A DNA stretch of 14,455 bases from a virus. Its lineage: Duplodnaviria; Heunggongvirae; Uroviricota; Caudoviricetes. Shown piece by piece: positions 1 through 7,385 of this stretch; position 1 is the first letter of the stretch, and each line of letters starts with the position of its first letter. The translations under genes were made by a program, and so were the position numbers. The stretch lies in the IMG/VR virus record IMGVR_UViG_2698536576_000009, positions 1 through 14,455 of that record, one strand, 5' to 3'. Below the pieces are notes generated by a model. That model made no database searches. It saw only the letters and a list, made by a program, of their open reading frames with translations, and was not told where the DNA came from.

Positions 1-169
1 TATCGCGTCCTCAACAATGAATTTTGTGATGCGGTGCCTGGTGCCTCCAGGTGACGTTAACCAGTTAACAATTAACGCCGGATACAGAGAATCCACCCAT
101 AACACTGTTTTTGGTTTTAACTGTTCCGCGTGCGCTTAGCCGCATTCACCGCATCACACAATTCACTTT

Positions 170-227
170 AAAAAGGGCGGTAGAGCAGTCACGGAGTAAA
201 ACTGATACCGCCAAACGTCACCAGAAA
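170..227 (-). ncRNA. dicF: DicF-like small regulatory RNA (about 53 nt plus U-tail) at the 3' end of the leftward early operon
   Basis: Minus-strand sequence TTTCTGGTGACGTTTGGCGGTATCAGTTTTACTCCGTGACTGCTCTACCGCCCTTTTT: a stem GGCGGTA...TACCGCC followed by a T-run (intrinsic terminator), with an inner CAGT/ACTG pairing. Matches my recollection of E. coli DicF and sits downstream of ydfA/ydfB-like genes as in the Qin dicB operon. Not verified by search. Confidence 0.5.
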
Positions 228-562
228 ATTGATAGCAGAGGGCGTTGCAGCGGGGTTGTCACTTAAGCGTATGGTCAACCTGACAACCCGGTGTCCTCAA
301 CGGGGAAGGAATCACCCCGCCATACTTACCGCCGCGCCATTTCGCGGATTGCCACAACCGGAAGCGCACGGGCGAAGATGCCGGCGGCACGCAACAGAGG
401 GAGAAATGACTTCGCCGTGCGCTTTCGCGTTATGCCCTGACTTTTCAGGGATATATCCTTTCAGTAAACTGTCAGTGCCGGATTCTTATCCGTGTCCGGC
501 GCACGACCACACGTGACAGCGTGTTGGTCTCCATTTTTAACCGCATCTCAATGGAGGATAAA

Positions 563-805
563 ATGCCAACAAAACTATGCCCAGCCTGTAATTCTTCGTC
601 TGATTTTTCAGAGAAGAATGGTTATTATATTTTTGATTGCCCGAAACACGGTGTATTCCACATATCAAAACTTGATGGGATATTTGTGAAACCAAGTCAG
701 TATCAGGCTGACAAGTTAAATAAAATTCTCAATGTCAAAAGAGCGTCAGGCTATACGGGACCTATAGAGGTTTTACCGCGTCCTCGTCTTGTGGAACTGG
801 ATTAA
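563..805 (+). CDS. small zinc-ribbon-like protein (80 aa), unknown function
   Basis: ATG at 563 preceded by GGAGG with 5-nt spacing; CPAC...CPKH cysteine/histidine pairs suggest a zinc ribbon; AT-rich; oriented antisense to the surrounding operon; the 3' end overlaps the convergent 186-aa gene by 44 nt. The six-frame ORF begins at 521; the start was chosen by RBS. Confidence 0.5.
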   Translation: MPTKLCPACNSSSDFSEKNGYYIFDCPKHGVFHISKLDGIFVKPSQYQADKLNKILNVKRASGYTGPIEVLPRPRLVELD

Positions 806-1322
806 ACCAGTGCTCCTGAATCGCTCGTATTTTTACCCTCGGATGATTGCCGGGGGTGATTATTAATTCTGGCGGACATGGTTCTCCATTATGACAAATT
901 GCGCTATAAGTGAAATCAGCCAGAGCAGTGCCGGTCATTATTATTCCGAACTTATCAAGCAGCGAGAGCAAATCACGCAAACAGGAGTTATCAGTTTTTT
1001 CGTTATAAAATGAATCCCCTGATGCAGAGAGCATTTCACCTCGCTCTGCGATGCGTTTGGCCATTTTCCAGAATTCTTTTTTTGAATACTTTTCCTCGAC
1101 ATAAAAACCCATCGCCGAGGCAATCCGCTTTGCAGCTTCTTCAGTATCCTGGTTGTTTGTTACCGAAACAGAGTACAATCCGGTAAACGCATCGCGCACA
1201 TTACGAGCTATATTATCAGTGTCTTTTTTCGTTACCGATTCCAATGCAAGTTCGTTCAGGCGTTGACGGAGTGTCTGTGCTGCAATCTCCTGGATTGATA
1301 GTGGTAAATCTTTAAATTCCAT
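762..1322 (-). CDS. hypothetical protein (186 aa), no family recognised; candidate accessory/exclusion gene
   Basis: Long minus-strand ORF with ATG at 1322..1320 and a GGGG purine tract upstream; lies in the leftward operon between the ydfB-like gene and the dicF-like sRNA, where Qin has ydfC; lower GC than flanking prophage DNA by eye. Confidence 0.65.
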   Translation of the reverse strand: MEFKDLPLSIQEIAAQTLRQRLNELALESVTKKDTDNIARNVRDAFTGLYSVSVTNNQDTEEAAKRIASAMGFYVEEKYSKKEFWKMAKRIAERGEMLSASGDSFYNEKTDNSCLRDLLSLLDKFGIIMTGTALADFTYSAICHNGEPCPPELIITPGNHPRVKIRAIQEHWFNPVPQDEDAVKPL

Positions 1323-1333
1323 CTTTAACCCCG

Positions 1334-1462
1334 TTAGCCGTTAGATTTTGCCGAACTGGAAAGCGCCTGTTTAAACTCACTGAAGCTGAGAGCTTCTTCG
1401 CCTTCGGCAAGGCCTTCGAAGTATTCTTCGTAAGCCTTTTTCATGATTGTGTCGAAATCCAT
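1334..1462 (-). CDS. ydfB: YdfB-like small protein (42 aa)
   Basis: Not in the ORF track (below its size cutoff). Minus-strand ATG at 1462..1460 with AAGGTGAG RBS; translation MDFDTIMKKAYEEYFEGLAEGEEALSFSEFKQALSSSAKSNG, stop TAA at 1336..1334; begins 10 nt after the ydfA-like stop. Size and position match Qin ydfB. Confidence 0.5.
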   Translation of the reverse strand: MDFDTIMKKAYEEYFEGLAEGEEALSFSEFKQALSSSAKSNG

Positions 1463-1472
1463 ATCACTCACC

Positions 1473-1619
1473 TTAGTTTCTTTCCAACCAGCGACGTGCG
1501 CCAGCTTCGGTTTTAAACGTTTTGCTTTTGGTATACGTCATGGCGGTGAATGTGCCGTCCTGATTGGGAAACACGCCACATACCAGAGATTCGTTGTTGC
1601 CAAGATCGATAGTATCCAT
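1473..1619 (-). CDS. ydfA: YdfA-like small protein (48 aa; DUF1391-like)
   Basis: Internal ATG at 1619..1617 of the 1473..1712 minus ORF, preceded by GAGG with 5-nt spacing; product MDTIDLGNNESLVCGVFPNQDGTFTAMTYTKSKTFKTEAGARRWLERN; first gene downstream of the repressor, as ydfA is after dicA. Confidence 0.55.
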   Translation of the reverse strand: MDTIDLGNNESLVCGVFPNQDGTFTAMTYTKSKTFKTEAGARRWLERN

Positions 1620-1696
1620 GTTGACCTCATTTCCCCTTAACGCCGGGGTAGCGGAACTGTTTGCTGAGAACACCGTGCGGTGTCTTGATGGATGAT

Positions 1697-1725
1697 AATT
1701 TAGTTTCCTCATTAAAATTGGTCAA
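1697..1725 (-). promoter_or_regulatory. candidate sigma70 promoter of the leftward early operon (PdicB-like)
   Basis: On the minus strand: -35 TTGACC (1725..1720), 17-nt spacer, -10 TAAATT (1702..1697); about 70 nt upstream of the ydfA-like start. Confidence 0.4.
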
Positions 1726-1739
1726 GAATTTTTAATGAG
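1708..1739. promoter_or_regulatory. perfect 10-bp inverted repeat (CTCATTAAAA / TTTTAATGAG) with 12-bp spacer, bracketing the -35 element; candidate operator
   Basis: Read directly: arms at 1708..1717 and 1730..1739 are exact reverse complements; the spacer contains the minus-strand -35 hexamer. Confidence 0.5.
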
Positions 1740-1809
1740 AAAACTCAATATTTAATGCAAAATAAAGCCAATACATTGAAATGTAAGGCTTTAAAATTTG
1801 TGAAGGGGG

Positions 1810-2217
1810 TTATTGATGTTTGTTACGTTTGCGAGCTTCTAGTAGCTCGGTGAACAGGCGATTAAAATTCTCAACGCGGGCACGGAGTTCGCTGATTTGT
1901 GCTTGCTGCTCTGATTTTGGAAGTGCGCGATACAATCGCAATATCTCCAACTCATCTTCCGATAAGTCTAAGGCGCTGTTGAGTGCAACTGGTGGATCTG
2001 GTGTTTTATCCTCGTCACCAAATAGTATCCAAGTTGGTGAACATTGCAATACCTCAGCCAGGCGATGCAAATTTTGCCCGCGCGGGGCTGTATGGTCGCT
2101 TTCCCATAGTGAAATTGATGAGCCAGATACGCCAGCAGCTTTGCTTAAATCGTTTTGACTTAAACCAACCTGTTTGCGTCTTTCTCTAATTCGTTGACCT
2201 AAAGTTTTCTCGTTCAT
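1810..2217 (-). CDS. dicA: DicA-like HTH (XRE-family) prophage repressor, 135 aa, without a peptidase S24 domain
   Basis: Product MNEKTLGQRIRERRKQVGLSQNDLSKAAGVS...LQCSPTWILFGDEDK... has an N-terminal HTH and the C-terminal motifs and length I recall for E. coli DicA; divergent from a Cro-like gene. Confidence 0.85.
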   Translation of the reverse strand: MNEKTLGQRIRERRKQVGLSQNDLSKAAGVSGSSISLWESDHTAPRGQNLHRLAEVLQCSPTWILFGDEDKTPDPPVALNSALDLSEDELEILRLYRALPKSEQQAQISELRARVENFNRLFTELLEARKRNKHQ

Positions 2218-2233
2218 ATTTAGATATCTTAAT
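2218..2233. promoter_or_regulatory. near-palindromic 16-mer ATTTAGATATCTTAAT abutting the repressor start codon; candidate operator
   Basis: Contains the perfect palindrome AGATATCT (2222..2229) with symmetric A/T flanks; lies in the divergent repressor/cro intergenic region. A second imperfect dyad TAGTTATTACTA is at about 2257..2268. Confidence 0.3.
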
Positions 2234-2238
2234 AACCC

Positions 2239-2268
2239 TTGACTTGAGATTCCTTTAGTTATTACTAT
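2239..2268 (+). promoter_or_regulatory. candidate rightward promoter (PR-like) for the cro-like gene
   Basis: -35 TTGACT (2239..2244), 18-nt spacer, -10 TACTAT (2263..2268); about 27 nt upstream of the ATG at 2295. Confidence 0.4.
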
Positions 2269-2294
2269 TGAGAAAACTCAACTTTGGAGGGGTG

Positions 2295-2522
2295 ATGTTT
2301 AAATCAGACGTAATTAATTTTTATGGGACGAAAGCCAAAGTAGCGAAAGCTGCTGGTGTTGATCCATCTGCTGTTTCTCAATGGGGGGAATTGGTTCCTG
2401 AAGGTCGCGCGATCCGCCTGCAAGAGGCATCCGGCGGGGAACTTCAGTACGACCCCAAAGTTTATGACGAATATCGTAAGGCAAAGCGGGCGGGGCGGTT
2501 GAACAATGAAAATCACTCCTGA
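2295..2522 (+). CDS. Cro-like regulator (DicC / YdaS family)
   Basis: ATG at 2295 directly after GGAGGGG (in-frame GTG at 2292 is an alternative); 75-aa product with an HTH-like segment KAKVAKAAGVDPSAVSQW; divergent from the DicA-like repressor. The six-frame ORF starts at 2268 on TTG. Confidence 0.75.
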   Translation: MFKSDVINFYGTKAKVAKAAGVDPSAVSQWGELVPEGRAIRLQEASGGELQYDPKVYDEYRKAKRAGRLNNENHS

Positions 2523-3057
2523 ACAGGCTCGTGAGGCTCTGGATGCATGGGTATGCCGACCAGGAATGACACAGGAGCAGGCGACGATATTAATCACGGA
2601 AGCATTCTGGGCTCTGAAAGAACGCCCGAACATCGATGTTCAACGCGTCACGTTTGATGATGGCGCGGTTGATCAACGGGCGCTGGGCGTCAACCGGGTG
2701 AAGATATTCGAACGATGGAAAGCTATTGATACCAGGGATAAGCGGGAAAAATTCACGGCGCTGATTCCGGCAATTATGGAGGCTATCCGGATCAGCGATT
2801 TCAGGTTGTATTGTGAAATTACTGATGGAAAAAGCATTACGTACATGATCGCCGGGTTAAACAAAGAATATGGCGATGTGGTGGAGTCCGGGCTGCTTTT
2901 TGCGGATCCATCTGTTGTGGAACGTGAGACTGACGAGCTTATAGAAAAAGCCATTGCTTTCAAGCATGCGTATCGTCAGCAATATCAATATTACTTTGCA
3001 GATAAACAAATGTCTGCCAGGGGTTCGTATGAGTATCGATGCACTACGATGGGCTAA
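2506..3057 (+). CDS. YdaT-like regulatory protein (CII-position gene), 183 aa
   Basis: Overlaps the cro-like stop by 17 nt and the O-like start by 29 nt; positional equivalent of ydaT after ydaS/dicC. Family assignment is from synteny and general resemblance only. Confidence 0.55.
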   Translation: MKITPEQAREALDAWVCRPGMTQEQATILITEAFWALKERPNIDVQRVTFDDGAVDQRALGVNRVKIFERWKAIDTRDKREKFTALIPAIMEAIRISDFRLYCEITDGKSITYMIAGLNKEYGDVVESGLLFADPSVVERETDELIEKAIAFKHAYRQQYQYYFADKQMSARGSYEYRCTTMG

Positions 3058-4069
3058 AAAGGTGAAAACCGGCAGTTCATCCAGTAAGTCAGTATTGACC
3101 TGGCTTGCTGATATGTGCGGTGCCGATTTGTGTGCATACCCGTCTGTATCTGCACTGGCAGAAGTAACGGAACTGAACAAAAAGACTGTGCAGGACAGCT
3201 TACGACACCTGATGGAGATTGGGTTAATTGTTGATACCGGTGAGAGAAAAGGCCGAACAAAGCAAATCGTGGTGTACCGACTTATCGGTGTAGAAGAAAG
3301 CGTTGCCGAGCCTGAATACACCCAAAAACGGGAGTCTTTAAAGGTGAGTAAAATTGGTGCTGTTAATAAAAACAGTACCGAAAATGGTTATGTTTCAGCA
3401 CAAAACAGACCCAAAAACGGAACTCTTAGCTGCATGGAAAATAACCAAAGACACCCAAATTTTCCATCAAAGACACCCAAAAACGGATCACGGAACCCAA
3501 AGGAATCCAAAGATCTAAACCCCACACATAACGCACGCGAGAGTGCTCCGACCAGTGAGCAGGAAGTTTTGTCGTTACAGGCACCACCCCCTGTATTCCT
3601 GGAAGGCCTGAGCGAACCCATCGGGAAATTTCCGATGACCGATAGCTGGTATCCGTCACGTGATTTTCGACGACGGGCTGCGTTGTGGGGGATGGCTTTG
3701 CCGGAGACAGAATTTACACCTGCTGAACTTGCCGCCTTCCGGGACTACTGGGCAGCGGAGAGGAAAGTGTTTACGCAGATTCAGTGGGAGCAGAAATTCG
3801 CCCGTCACGTAAATCACGTCAGGGCGCAGGTTAAACCAGTCAGCAAGGGGGTAAACCATGCAGCAGCACCAGGTGGCACCGCATCACGGGCAGTTCAGGA
3901 AATTCGGGCAGCACGTGAGCAGTGGGAACGTGAAAACGGATTTATCAGCGACGGAAACGGCGTGGAAGCTGTGGGAGCTCATGGGGGAGGTTTATTCGAA
4001 CCGCTGGACTCAGAAGAACGGGGCCGCACCTTCGACGCTCTGGATTGCACAGATTGGTGCGATGACTGA
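3029..4069 (+). CDS. replication initiator, O-like (N-terminal winged-helix domain plus DnaT-like C-terminal region)
   Basis: ATG at 3029 preceded by AGGGG; N-terminus MSIDALRWAKK...LTWLADMCGADLCAYPSVSALAEVTELNKKTVQDSLRHLMEIGLIV is typical of phage replication-initiator HTH domains. The ORF track start at 2954 was rejected for lack of an RBS. The 3' 212 nt overlap the P-like ORF. Confidence 0.7.
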   Translation: MSIDALRWAKKVKTGSSSSKSVLTWLADMCGADLCAYPSVSALAEVTELNKKTVQDSLRHLMEIGLIVDTGERKGRTKQIVVYRLIGVEESVAEPEYTQKRESLKVSKIGAVNKNSTENGYVSAQNRPKNGTLSCMENNQRHPNFPSKTPKNGSRNPKESKDLNPTHNARESAPTSEQEVLSLQAPPPVFLEGLSEPIGKFPMTDSWYPSRDFRRRAALWGMALPETEFTPAELAAFRDYWAAERKVFTQIQWEQKFARHVNHVRAQVKPVSKGVNHAAAPGGTASRAVQEIRAAREQWERENGFISDGNGVEAVGAHGGGLFEPLDSEERGRTFDALDCTDWCDD

Positions 4070-4523
4070 GCAGCAAATCCGGCAGGTCTGCCGCCAGTGC
4101 ATGGACCGCTGCCGGGCGGGTGAAACATGGCCCCCGGACCTGGCTGAGTTTGTGGCGCTGATTTCGGAAAGCGGAGCCAATCCATTCGGTCTGACGGTGG
4201 ATGCTGTGATGGAGGAGTACCGCCGCTGGCGCAATGAGTCCTGGCGATACGACGGAAGTGATAAGTACCCGTGGTCTCAGCCTGTGCTGTATCACATTTG
4301 CCTCGAGATGCGTTCAAAGGGGATTGAGCGCCAGATGACCGAAGGGGAATTAAAACGGCTTGCAGAACGGCAGCTGACGAAATGGGCAAAGCATGTAGGT
4401 AACGGCCTGAGCGTTCCGCCAGTCCGGCGACAACTGGCGGCACCCAAACGCCCGTCGGGGCCAACGCCAATTGAGTTGCTGAAACAGGAATATGAACGCC
4501 GGAAAGCGGCTGGTTTTGTTTGA
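3858..4523 (+). CDS. replication protein P-like (helicase loader)
   Basis: C-terminal half (DKYPWSQPVLYHICLEMRSKG...TEGELKRLAERQLTKWAKHV) resembles lambda P as I recall it; ATG at 3858 follows AAGGGGG. An alternative start at 4062 (ATGACTGA, 8-nt overlap with the O-like stop) would give 153 aa. Confidence 0.7.
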   Translation: MQQHQVAPHHGQFRKFGQHVSSGNVKTDLSATETAWKLWELMGEVYSNRWTQKNGAAPSTLWIAQIGAMTEQQIRQVCRQCMDRCRAGETWPPDLAEFVALISESGANPFGLTVDAVMEEYRRWRNESWRYDGSDKYPWSQPVLYHICLEMRSKGIERQMTEGELKRLAERQLTKWAKHVGNGLSVPPVRRQLAAPKRPSGPTPIELLKQEYERRKAAGFV

Positions 4524-4556
4524 GTTGATAAGTAATTTTACCGGGAGGAAATTTTA

Positions 4557-5318
4557 ATGGAGACTGTTTTTGACGCACTGAAAGCAATGGGAAAAGCCAC
4601 GTCGGTAGAACTCGCTGCGCGACTTGATATCAGCCGTGAAGAAGTGCTGAACGAGCTGTGGGAACTGAAAAAGTCTGGCTTCGTTGATAAAAGCGTAAAC
4701 ACCTGGCGTGTGGCTGATAACAACGTTCAGCAGGAGCAGCCAGCGCCGGCAGAACTGCCGGAAGAAACTACCACGGCAACAGTCGCGAAAATTTCAGAGA
4801 GCGATTTAACTGCGACGATTGAACAACGTGGACCACAAACGGCGGATGAACTGGCTACGCTGTTCGGTACCACATCCCGCAAAGTGGCTTCAACGCTGGC
4901 AATGGCAATCAGCAAAGGTCGTCTGATTCGCGTAAATCAGGGCGGTAAATTTCGTTACTGCATACCGGGCGATAATTTACCAGCAGAGCCGAAAGCAGCA
5001 TCGGTAGCGGAAACTGATGGTAAGGCCTTTCCTCAGCCAGCAGGCGTTGCGTTACCAGTACAGGAAGCTGTAACACTGGAAGAAATTAAAACAGAAACTG
5101 TGGCGGACATTGTGCAGTCGCTGCCATCGTTTACTGAAACGCGAGCTGATGATTTGATTTTGCCATCGCTGCATATGGCAAACCGCGAACTGCGGCGGGC
5201 GAAGAATCATGTCCAGAAGTGGGAGCGTGTCTGTGCCGCGCTGCGGGAGCTGAACAAGTACCGGGATATTGTTCGACAGATTGTTGATTCCTCCAGTCGT
5301 ATTGTGTCGGAAAAGTGA
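4557..5318 (+). CDS. hypothetical prophage protein with two winged-helix-like segments (253 aa)
   Basis: ATG at 4557 with GGGAGG RBS at 9-nt spacing; repeated HTH-like segments ([28 protein letters not shown] and [29 protein letters not shown]). Confidence 0.7.
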
Positions 5319-5333
5319 TTGCCGGAGGCGCTT

Positions 5334-5756
5334 ATGGCAAAAATTTTTACACAAGAAGAGCGAGAAAAAATTAAAGGGCAGGTTGTTGAACTTGTACGTC
5401 TGAGCGGTCGCGAGACGTTACGGGCACTGGAGGCTAAAACCGGTGTATCAAGGTATTACATAAGCACTCTCGCCAGAGAACTGGTCGCCAGTGGTGATGT
5501 TTACAATTCAGGCTACGGATTATTCCCGTCCGAGCAGGCGCGTAAAGACTGGCAAAACGCCCGCAAAAAACTATCAAGGGCAAAGGTGAAGAAACCGGTT
5601 GTGGTTGATCCTGACCTTATCTGGTCATTACCAGACGGAGAAATACGCCGCTACGACAGGCGTCTGAACATAATCTGTCGCGAGTGCAGGAAGAGCGAAG
5701 TTATGCAGCGCGTGCTGGCGTTTTATCAGGGGAAATTTCAGGAGGTGGTGCGGTGA
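5334..5756 (+). CDS. hypothetical protein (140 aa) with HTH-like segment
   Basis: ATG at 5334 with GGAGG 5 nt upstream (the track's upstream TTG at 5319 was rejected); stop overlaps the next start (GTGA). Confidence 0.65.
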   Translation: MAKIFTQEEREKIKGQVVELVRLSGRETLRALEAKTGVSRYYISTLARELVASGDVYNSGYGLFPSEQARKDWQNARKKLSRAKVKKPVVVDPDLIWSLPDGEIRRYDRRLNIICRECRKSEVMQRVLAFYQGKFQEVVR

Positions 5757-6028
5757 GTGAATCAAAATGCCAGGTTAATGGCAACAAGATAGAACCGTGT
5801 ACGGTACTGGCAAAATCCCTTGAGCATGATGCTGAATACACGACGCGAAAAGGTCTGCTGATATACAAAATCTGGAATGAGAGTTTAACTCGCGGACCTG
5901 ATTTGGTGATGTTGCGTTCCGGTGAATTTTCTAAATTACCAGTTCGAGTTTCATTTTGCCCGTTCTGTGGTGAAAGTCTGAAAACGTGGGAAGCGGAGGC
6001 AACCAGTGAGCGGAAAAAGAATGACTAA
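5753..6028 (+). CDS. hypothetical small protein (91 aa) with C-terminal CPFC zinc-binding-like motif
   Basis: GTG at 5753 preceded by AGGAGG at 7-nt spacing, overlapping the upstream stop (GTGA coupling). Confidence 0.55.
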   Translation: MSESKCQVNGNKIEPCTVLAKSLEHDAEYTTRKGLLIYKIWNESLTRGPDLVMLRSGEFSKLPVRVSFCPFCGESLKTWEAEATSERKKND

Positions 6029-6230
6029 CAGAGAGCTTGTCGATGCCGCGATTAAGCTTGCTGGTGATTTTTATTCAATGATGGGGTACGCGCATCGCCC
6101 TGGATTCAAATATTGGGAATCACCGCATCCGCAAGAGCAACAGGTATTTCAAATGGCCTGCCGTGCTTTTGAGGTTATTCGCGGTTCTGATGTGATGGAC
6201 GCCGTTGCCGACCTGGAGGATGAAGAGTGA
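6006..6230 (+). CDS. hypothetical small protein (about 70-74 aa)
   Basis: GTG at 6006 after GGAGG (6-nt spacing), or ATG at 6021; stop TGA overlaps the next GTG start. Confidence 0.55.
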   Translation: MSGKRMTNRELVDAAIKLAGDFYSMMGYAHRPGFKYWESPHPQEQQVFQMACRAFEVIRGSDVMDAVADLEDEE

Positions 6231-6865
6231 GCAAGATTGACTATCAGGCACTACGTGCTAAGGCAGAAAAAGCAACGTGTGGCGAGTGGTCGCTCGAATA
6301 TGGAAAGGGCCGATTTGATGGTGATGATGCACTAATTCATCGTGAAGTTGCTGGATATATTCCTGTTTGCAGAATTGAAGGAGCGCATCCAGAAAGCGGT
6401 TTCGATGAAGATTTCCAAATGGAACAGCAGTCCAATGCTGAATTCATCGCTGCAGCCAATCCAGCTACCGTGCTGACACTGCTGGCTGAACGGGAAGCCC
6501 AAAGCAAACGCATTGCAGAGCTGGAGACTAATCTTGCGGCACTGGCGGTGGAGAATGCGGGAATAAAGTCTGCAATTCCTCAACTACGGGATATTGATGC
6601 TGACAATGACAATATGGATGACGTATCTCTTGCTGAAGACTTCGGATTCAATCATGCAATAGAACGGATGAAACGACGGATTACTGAAATTCCGGCTGCT
6701 GACGCTTTCCTGGCTGATGTTCGAGCGGGGGCGCTTAACGACCTTTGCACGGCGTTTGTCAGGCACGCAAAAGTTGCAGGACTGGATGATGCCGATACCG
6801 TAACGCTTAAGGAAGTGACAGAAGCATTGTTGCATTGTGCAGAACAGATTCGCGCGCCTGAATAA
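6227..6865 (+). CDS. Ead/Ea22-like prophage protein (212 aa), tentative
   Basis: GTG at 6227 with GGAGGA RBS; the internal motif NAEFIAAANPATVLTLLAEREAQSKRIAELE resembles Ea22-like proteins as I recall them. Confidence 0.6.
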   Translation: MSKIDYQALRAKAEKATCGEWSLEYGKGRFDGDDALIHREVAGYIPVCRIEGAHPESGFDEDFQMEQQSNAEFIAAANPATVLTLLAEREAQSKRIAELETNLAALAVENAGIKSAIPQLRDIDADNDNMDDVSLAEDFGFNHAIERMKRRITEIPAADAFLADVRAGALNDLCTAFVRHAKVAGLDDADTVTLKEVTEALLHCAEQIRAPE

Positions 6866-6962
6866 TTAAATTTAGTGTTGTAAATAAAATTTAATCCTTA
6901 ACCGGAGGGATTTCTGCACCCTCAGAACATCGGGAGGCCGCCTGAAAGGGCGGTAATGAAAA

Positions 6963-7382
6963 GTGACTGAATTAACCAAAGAGCAATTAATCGAAGAAGC
7001 CAAATTAAAAATAGCGATTGCGAAATGCCACCCCAATTCAGGGATGGCACGGGTAGAGGGCGAGTTATTCAAAATTGCACTGGCATCGCTGGTAGCAGAG
7101 CCAGTTGCATGGACTGATGACGAGGAACTGCGAGATGTTGAGCAAATTGGTTTAGGTTATTTATTACCTTGTCCTCCAGATAAATACGCAGACCCGCGTC
7201 GTGTAATTCCGCTGTATCGTGTGCCGCCAGTTCCCACAGTGCAGGCACCGGGCATTGAGATCGCAATAAACGAACTGGTGTCTCTGTCCCCACGGCTGGA
7301 TAAACGAGCGGTGGAAACTCTTTCTATGGCTGTGGCACATCTACGCAAACTGGTTAAGAAGCAGATACAGGCCAAGGACTAA
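6963..7382 (+). CDS. hypothetical protein (139 aa), tandem paralog of the next gene
   Basis: GTG start; N-terminus MTELTKEQLIEEAKLKIAIAK...KIALASLVAEP parallels MTTFTDKEMIKEIKERIGS...YEIALASLEAEP of the next ORF. The RBS is weak. Confidence 0.55.
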   Translation: MTELTKEQLIEEAKLKIAIAKCHPNSGMARVEGELFKIALASLVAEPVAWTDDEELRDVEQIGLGYLLPCPPDKYADPRRVIPLYRVPPVPTVQAPGIEIAINELVSLSPRLDKRAVETLSMAVAHLRKLVKKQIQAKD

Positions 7383-7385
7383 CAC

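Follow-up and report, generated by a model that had tools for sequence, protein, structure and literature searches.

A convergent gene pair in the early operon of a Qin-type prophage

The DNA analysed here (henceforth the window) is a stretch of 14,455 nucleotides, positions 1 to 14,455 of the IMG/VR virus record IMGVR_UViG_2698536576_000009, and represents the early region of a Qin/DicA-type lambdoid prophage of Escherichia coli. Our subject is a pair of convergent genes in this region: a gene for a protein of 186 amino acids (aa) on the minus strand (762-1322), which starts 11 nt past the stop codon of ydfB, and a gene for an 80-aa, zinc-ribbon-like protein on the plus strand (563-805, with its ATG at 563). 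Both are in the list of open reading frames (ORFs) of the window, and their coding regions overlap at the 3' ends by 44 nt (762-805, stop codons included), just as an earlier note on this sequence had described them. The ribosome-binding site that the note had called strong is the Shine-Dalgarno sequence GGAGGA (553-558, plus strand), read from the sequence four bases upstream of the ATG of the small gene. We found that the two genes, together with the leader of the small gene, make up a self-contained, horizontally exchanged two-gene cassette (506-1335), one of the alternative alleles of a polymorphic slot that belongs to an early operon under repressor control.

The slot lies, as had been proposed, between a ydfB-like gene and dicF: DicF was identified through Rfam, ydfA through Pfam and ydfB through RefSeq. 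Specifically, the gene for the DicF small RNA (sRNA; 175-226, minus strand; Rfam RF00039, 74.1 bits against a gathering score of 48, E 4e-15) is found downstream of the 186-aa gene, in the same operon and the same orientation. Upstream are ydfB (1334-1462, minus strand), located through the RefSeq annotation of a 99.9%-identical genome, and ydfA (1473-1619, minus strand), for which RefSeq annotation is complemented by a match to DUF1391 (Pfam PF07151, E 9e-29); the ydfA-ydfB block is 95% identical to that of K-12. Together with a DicA-like repressor and a divergent Cro-like gene (described below), these genes give the window the same backbone as the DicA-repressed dicBF operon of Qin (ydfA-ydfB-ydfC-dicF-dicB), except that no ydfC lies between ydfB and dicF, the window having no similarity to K-12 ydfC. 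When the window was compared by blastn with Qin in NC_000913, positions 1-505 aligned at 92% and positions 1336-1690 at 95%, while 506-1335 had no counterpart, meaning that the pair occupies the position of ydfC in K-12. YdfC itself is unrelated to the 186-aa protein.

This comparison bears out the presence/absence polymorphism that the note had expected relative to Qin, and the slot is allelic as well (see below). The suggestion that the pair was inserted at the ydfC site was right as to position; however, the cassette is not a strict alternative to ydfC. K-12 has ydfC without the pair and the window has the pair without ydfC, whereas locus L114, from another prophage, has both: there ydfA, ydfB and ydfC are followed by a gene for a 201-aa protein with the same N-terminal domain as the 186-aa protein and by a convergent 63-aa gene (1760-2775). 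K-12 (L004, 2062/2063) lacks exactly these 795 bp of L114, from 20 nt past the ydfC stop codon, i.e., the two loci differ by a clean indel. The segment had also been described as AT-rich, which holds for the small gene (GC content 0.35-0.37) but is not clear for the 186-aa gene (0.42-0.46), given values of 0.46-0.48 in ydfA/ydfB and 0.55-0.62 in the spacer on the dicF side. A 13-nt direct repeat, TCCAT(T/C)TTTAACC, is present near both cassette ends (530-542 and 1318-1330), with the second copy overlapping the start codon of the 186-aa gene; repeats of similar size are numerous in the region and this one is probably due to chance. We dropped the idea of an invertible segment or of flanking repeats, as all repeats found were short and at chance level.

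Several neighbouring features complete the picture of the locus. The DicA-like repressor (135 aa; 1810-2217, minus strand; Pfam HTH_3, E 1e-16) has a counterpart annotated as dicA in the related locus L002, and divergent from it the Cro-like gene (P22_Cro, E 7e-18) and a YdaT-family gene run rightward from 2268. In NZ_LR882057 (99.9% identical), dicB, a DUF1482 gene and an exonuclease gene follow further left, just beyond the window. A consensus scan found a promoter-like site, TTGACC-17-TAAATT (1697-1725, minus strand), upstream of ydfA; it is likely the equivalent of dicBp, the position of which in Qin agrees with that of this site (PMC10448788). Starting at an upstream ATG, the ydfA frame stays open over 79 codons (1473-1712, minus strand), of which RefSeq annotates 48, and the DUF1391 match covers only residues 33-79 of the long frame. 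A RelE/RelB toxin-antitoxin pair separates the repressor from ydfA in loci L003, L005, L007 and L111 of related prophages and is absent from the window; this gap is a second variable slot of the same operon. The spacer at 413-505 is near-invariant across all cassette types and K-12, is better conserved than the flanking genes and has strong hairpins (e.g., GUGCCGGAU...GUCCGGCGCAC); it may carry signals for processing the transcript of dicBF, or else a promoter directed rightward, which K-12 would then have as well. In the rightward part of the prophage, a full-length match to Rfam sok (RF01794; 7816-7991, plus strand, 120.7 bits, E 1e-27) points to a type I toxin-antitoxin locus of the hok/sok kind, and an IsrK sRNA (10819-10895, plus strand, 74 bits) is directly followed by a C4 antisense RNA (10923-11007, plus strand, 76 bits).

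The two proteins and their conservation

The 186-aa protein is a hypothetical protein in RefSeq genomes, and in a search of 5.8 billion proteins its full-length homologs, all with at least 67% identity, came only from Escherichia and Salmonella. We found that it combines a widespread N-terminal domain with a rare C-terminal one. The N-domain (residues 1-58; 1149-1322, minus strand), delimited by PHROGs, HMMER and AlphaFold2, is a predicted two-helix hairpin, with a predicted local distance difference test (pLDDT) score of about 77-89 over residues 1-50 when modelled from an 89-sequence alignment; its similarity to proteins of other cassette types reaches to about residue 70. All PHROGs matches of the protein fall on the N-terminus and have unknown function (phrogs 2151, 1363, 9419, 6937 and 33007). 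Using HMMER against 1.84 billion representative sequences, we found the N-domain in about 75 clusters (at 50% identity) of prophage proteins of 50-220 aa, in which it is attached to more than 25 unrelated C-termini. The protein that the note could not place in any family thus indeed belongs to no characterised family, but its first 60-70 residues or so are a widespread prophage domain. One of the related proteins, P0147 (204 aa), carries two tandem copies of it.

By contrast, the C-domain (residues 79-178; 789-1088, minus strand) is specific to the cassette type of the window (henceforth type A). A profile search of the same 1.84 billion representatives with HMMER returned only its own family, a fragment and a single further protein, P0134, and no relation to Pfam or to PDB sequences was found. 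We discarded a remote homology between the type A C-domain and the protein of another cassette type, B, for which hhalign gave a probability of 0.5%. Foldseek searches with the model of the 186-aa protein against BFVD and PDB likewise returned only a 52-aa N-domain homolog of phage phi191 and noise. The name 'RNA-binding protein', given to the protein by the NCBI annotation pipeline PGAP in two genomes (L003 = NZ_CM168005, and NZ_OZ547217), was also set aside, as no NCBIfam or Pfam model backs it and the protein is called hypothetical elsewhere. The ratio of nonsynonymous to synonymous substitution rates (dN/dS) of the gene is 0.2-0.9 in the N-terminal part and 0.07-0.18 in the C-terminal part.

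The 80-aa protein matches phrog_10133 (function unknown; E 6e-27) and is rare: among 5.8 billion proteins there are only 4 clusters of it, and a tblastn search of 50,697 phage records gave no match. Its putative metal ligands (codons within 578-649, plus strand), C6 (578-580), C9 (587-589), C26 (638-640) and H29 (647-649), form a CxxC...CPxH pattern that is invariant in the alignment, including in a homolog with 44% identity (see below). The protein thus has the two conserved knuckles of a zinc ribbon (CxxC...CxxC/H), but it scores 14.6 bits against the Pfam zinc ribbon PF13453 (Zn_ribbon_TFIIB), under the cut-off of 22; the description 'zinc-ribbon-like' stands on the invariant residues and does not extend to membership of a curated family. 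RefSeq/PGAP leaves the ORF unannotated in several genomes, including NZ_LR882057, and other genomes annotate it, at times as a 135-aa ORF extending upstream.

The small ORF nevertheless shows the substitution pattern of a coding gene. Its length of 80 codons is kept in divergent copies with 66-69% amino-acid identity, and its in-frame dN/dS (Nei-Gojobori, codons 1-66, in divergent copies fetched through their proteins) is 0.07-0.32; four of the five other frames have values of about 0.5-7, and reverse-complement frame 1 has 0.25-0.50. Hence the ORF, for which the note had considered that it might be spurious if conservation were lacking, is conserved under frame-specific purifying selection. 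Both genes are real and under purifying selection and they are co-inherited, in line with the two-gene unit that had been suspected.

Evidence on the pairing of the two genes comes from P0134, a standalone 119-aa relative of the C-domain (E 8e-9, approximately 36% identity). P0134 is encoded in another lambdoid prophage, on metagenomic contig L015, in the order DicA-like repressor, P0134, KilR; there is no ydfA, ydfB or N-domain at this locus, and the left flank is KilR rather than DicF/dicB. Convergent to P0134, with a 71-nt overlap, is a 91-aa ORF that is 44-45% identical to the zinc-ribbon protein. The tail-to-tail association of the C-domain with the zinc-ribbon gene has thus outlasted a change of neighbourhood, and on the strength of this comparison we take the two to form a conserved module of two genes. 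Each C-domain locus that we fetched (29 loci, not all of them independent) contains the small gene as well. Searches for the small protein and the C-domain in GTDB genomes, and for the C-domain in metagenomes, yielded no distant pair beyond L015.

Type A cassettes are unevenly preserved. The intact core of the window type was found in 24-25 out of 5,426 complete genomes of E. coli, often from porcine enterotoxigenic E. coli and in a few cases from poultry, human and calf isolates, and also in Salmonella serovars. The common form in complete E. coli genomes (approximately 385 of them) is an O157:H7-type cassette, 76% identical to that of the window, in which both genes are inactivated (e.g., L005 (TR01), 1559-2320; also L021-L028 and L111): the large gene is frameshifted to 129 aa, and the small gene stops after 61 codons (stop at codon 62). 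The rare intact allele and the decayed copy, which is fixed in many O157:H7 genomes, together provide natural loss-of-function material.

Other convergent pairs in the same slot

To place the window cassette among its relatives, we used 80 viral contigs carrying the N-domain and looked in each for a small ORF at the conserved sequence GGAGGATAAAATG. The resulting table spans 107 loci; some contigs were fetched twice, and the loci comprise 45 distinct sequence combinations. We found that the same position is held by at least six other, unrelated convergent pairs, in which the N-domain is the same and both the C-terminus and the small partner differ. The most frequent combination is a 212/208-aa protein (phrog_2151) with a 69-aa one (phrog_4274; 52 loci), followed by the 186-aa and 80-aa pair of the window (29 loci), a 129-aa protein with one of about 98 aa (7 loci) and a 122-aa protein with an unannotated one of 100 aa (phrog_8894; 1 locus). 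Three further pairs, of 194 and 150 aa, 201 and 63 aa, and 198 and 76 aa, were found in other prophages (L112, L113 and L114, with the 201-aa and 63-aa pair in L114). The correspondence between C-terminal type and small-gene type is one-to-one, with no cross-pairing among the 107 loci. The small gene of type B is also under frame-specific purifying selection (dN/dS 0.23). Such pairs are often half-annotated because the small gene is missed; in L008, for example, the 100-aa ORF (1560-1862, plus strand; phrog_8894, E 6e-34) is convergent to the 122-aa N-domain gene with a 77-nt overlap, and the annotation pipeline missed it, leaving it unannotated in RefSeq.

In all seven pair types the 3' ends of the two genes abut or overlap (0-194 nt), and in this respect the tail-to-tail layout pointed out in the note is a general feature of the slot. 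Its length of 44 nt is not conserved: we found overlaps of 0, 20, 23, 71, 77, 125, 131 and 194 nt in relatives, including 20 nt in a subtype of the window cassette and 71 nt in the distant pair of L015, and the last residues of the 186-aa protein are variable. As there is no room for a terminator between the genes, transcription of each would be expected to interfere with the other.

The cassettes are also independent of the immunity region that they adjoin. Taking as the upstream neighbour the nearest same-strand ORF of 95-260 aa (usually a repressor, RelE in one cluster), we found at least 6 neighbour types next to type A and at least 12 next to type B, and one repressor type occurred with cassette types A, B and C.

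Over more than 5 kb of early genes on the minus strand, no gene but the small one is on the plus strand, so its expression requires a promoter of its own. The left arm of the cassette (506-562, plus strand, about 60 nt), which is absent from K-12, is the leader of the small gene and may also contain its promoter; in alignments this arm and the ribosome-binding site with its ATG are common to the unrelated cassette types A, B and C, as is the sequence TGGAGGATAAAATG at the small-gene start. In type D the start was located by a search for the ribosome-binding-site-ATG motif with at most 2 mismatches. Loci with a KilR-type context have a comparable element: L015 and L113, whose small genes are unrelated, share a block of some 70 nt immediately before the start, discrete within an otherwise diverged spacer, which contains TGATATACT or TGGTATTCT, i.e., an extended -10-like element. 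Hexamer pairs with a -10-like element overlapping the start codon can be seen in the window (537-564, plus strand, TAAAATG) and in L015 (4117-4146, minus strand, TACAATG). A hairpin sequestering the ribosome-binding site in the leader was considered and dropped, since the minimum-free-energy fold lacks it and the z-score is only -2.2.

Function and competing explanations

Neither protein had a significant match in Pfam, NCBIfam, PADLOC or PDB sequences; in PADLOC-DB v2 the best hits of the 186-aa protein had non-significant E-values of 0.014-0.021 and the 80-aa protein had none. The partners from the six other pair types had no significant match in homology and defence library searches either, all of them being without Pfam and PADLOC hits. 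We found no paper on the two genes of the window in the literature, and papers on dicBF treat ydfABC as uncharacterised (PMC5069750, PMC10448788). Considering the missing family matches and the failed structure prediction of the C-domain (see below), the function of the pair is one that we infer.

On the evidence above, the defence or toxin-antidote role suggested in the note is plausible, and the pair makes a good, as yet unproven, candidate module for competition between phages or for a toxin and its antidote. Our preferred, though tentative, explanation is that the two proteins are cognate antagonists whose expression follows opposite regimes. Synthesis of the small one would start from its own putative promoter, probably also in the lysogen, while the large one would be made only upon derepression of the early operon, i.e., on induction or infection. 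One partner would bind and neutralise the other through the C-domain, and the effector could be either of the two. The most likely role of such a pair would be phage-versus-phage competition, i.e., an exclusion or abortive function combined with cognate self-immunity; as a second possibility, the lysogen would be shielded from a harmful early protein.

Two kinds of known systems resemble this arrangement. With a constant N-terminal part, variable C-domains and matched partners, the cassettes resemble polymorphic effector/immunity logic. Like CdiA-CT/CdiI and Rhs-CT/RhsI, they have a constant N-part with many unrelated C-domains, a linked cognate small gene (although linkage alone could account for the latter) and conserved flanks through which the variable core can be exchanged. 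Unlike in those systems, the partner here is convergent rather than co-directional and downstream, Pfam shows no delivery, toxin or immunity domain, and the proteins of the pair are small, cytoplasmic and phage-encoded. As in type II toxin-antitoxin systems, two genes form a compact unit on a mobile element and one product may neutralise the other, but the genes here form no operon, neither a DNA-binding antitoxin domain nor a known toxin fold is present, and the small partner can be lost from beside an intact large gene.

In genomic place and opposite regulation, on the other hand, the pair resembles prophage exclusion with self-immunity, as in sieB/esc, BstA/aba and Fc02 olg1/gene 10. In phages P22 and lambda, sieB/esc combines exclusion with self-immunity; in P22 it lies in the early-left operon. 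BstA/aba is a prophage exclusion system with cognate self-immunity (10.1101/2020.07.13.199331). The likeness lies in a prophage accessory function with two cognate elements, of which the first is active in the lysogen and the second safeguards lytic growth of the phage itself, as we propose for the pair. There is no sequence or domain similarity, and whereas esc arises in frame from within sieB and the counterpart of BstA is a DNA element, aba, the pair here consists of separate, convergent protein genes. A Pfam scan of both proteins gave no match to the SieB family, and reading of the sequences alone, with no prediction tool, revealed no hydrophobic segment in either. Pseudomonas phage Fc02 has an opposite-strand overlap of olg1 and gene 10, both of which showed superinfection exclusion (PMC9936078). 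There too a small, lysogen-expressed gene (olg1) overlaps one of the genes in the early lytic operon, beside the repressor; Fc02 differs in being a Mu-like phage with unrelated sequences and another overlap geometry.

Several observations weigh against a cognate antagonistic pair. Across the seven pairs, no partner could be matched to a family of toxins or of immunity, defence or DNA-binding proteins, and the C-domain is predicted by AlphaFold2 with a pLDDT below 50 from both a 10-sequence and an 89-sequence alignment. For adjacent genes in an 830-bp cassette, linkage alone predicts co-occurrence, and L015 is the only truly distant instance that backs selection for the pairing. The small gene is truncated beside an intact large gene in 7 type B and 5 type D loci, so the small partner is dispensable, at least in (cryptic) lysogens. 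Finally, neither a consensus scan nor reading of positions 400-562 gave a convincing sigma-70 promoter, the -10-like TAAAAT of the window overlapping the ATG of the small gene; given these weak matches, the promoter of the small gene is something we infer.

Two alternatives retain some weight. First, the proteins may act together as a two-subunit system for defence or host takeover, with the zinc-ribbon protein as a subunit or sensor. This would fit the co-conservation of the C-domain and the small gene at large distance, the strict pairing of C-terminal and small-gene types and the joint decay of both genes in the O157-type copy. We nevertheless consider it rather unlikely: convergent genes depend on different promoters, one of them repressor-controlled here, and colliding transcripts oppose co-expression; moreover, there are no PADLOC matches, and the large gene stays intact where the small one is truncated. 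Second, the genes may be functionally unrelated occupants of a recombination-prone slot, namely a mosaic accessory protein of the early operon and an independent, AT-rich moron. Mosaicism is typical of lambdoid genomes, the cassette combines freely with different immunity regions, an 830-bp linkage accounts for strict co-occurrence, the small gene is more AT-rich than the large one (GC 0.35-0.37 vs. 0.42-0.46), and it is sometimes lost alone. We give this explanation a low probability, since the pairing recurs at approximately 36% and 45% identity between other flanks in L015, and since a chance adjacency would have to arise anew for each of the seven unrelated tail-to-tail pairs.

A role in the lysis-lysogeny switch, with the small protein as an antirepressor or regulator of the DicA-like repressor and the large protein as its regulator, appears very unlikely to us. 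Such a role has precedents: in the TF-smORF (transcription factor-small ORF) modules of linear plasmid-like phages, small proteins without homologs inactivate cI-type repressors (PMC10432266), and DicA has an antirepressor, Rem of Qin (PMC10448788). The cassette is close to the immunity region and, like those modules, has variable small proteins without homologs, each tied to a larger neighbour in a swap-prone slot of a temperate phage. However, TF-smORF genes are divergent, their larger gene encodes a helix-turn-helix (HTH) protein and the smORF is specific for its own repressor. Here the genes are convergent, Pfam and NCBIfam show no HTH in the 186-aa protein, nor was any other DNA-binding domain found, and cassette type does not co-vary with the repressor (at least 6 neighbours of type A; one repressor with types A, B and C), an independence that disfavours a repressor-specific antirepressor.

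Equally at the margin, and in our view highly improbable, is the explanation that the rightward transcript chiefly restrains the dicBF-type operon, by antisense action or transcription interference, with the peptide being secondary. In each of the seven pair types the two 3' ends abut or overlap without an intervening terminator, and the operon encodes the toxic DicF and DicB under layered control (PMC10448788), yet frame-specific purifying selection and the invariant Cys/His residues show that the protein itself is selected, and a role of the RNA alone would need no seven different conserved proteins. That the 80-aa ORF is a spurious frame facing the flank of a real gene, as its missing PGAP annotation in several genomes and its mere 4 protein clusters might suggest, is rejected by the substitution pattern (in-frame dN/dS 0.07-0.32, with the 80-aa length kept at 66% identity), along with the 44%-identical homolog, the strong ribosome-binding site and the PHROG match.

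Extending the proposal of a cognate antagonistic pair to the slot as a whole, we suggest, as a more speculative and so far doubtful generalisation, that the early-left operon of enterobacterial lambdoid prophages hosts an undescribed class of polymorphic tail-to-tail cassettes acting in kin discrimination or in exclusion with self-immunity. In such cassettes, a constant N-domain would carry interchangeable effector C-domains, each with a matching small protein whose gene lies on the other strand and is driven from the conserved arm. The core would be swapped by recombination between the two conserved arms at the translation starts, and convergent transcription would make the partners mutually exclusive in time.

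The dicBF operon is among the best-studied cryptic-prophage loci of E. coli, yet one of its slots holds at least seven unrelated pairs of unknown function, the proteins of which are all absent from current catalogues of defence systems and toxins. If these pairs are indeed cognate sets of effector and neutraliser, they would constitute a new family of phage-competition or toxin-antidote modules and would offer a simple, testable case in which convergent transcription separates antagonistic functions in time.

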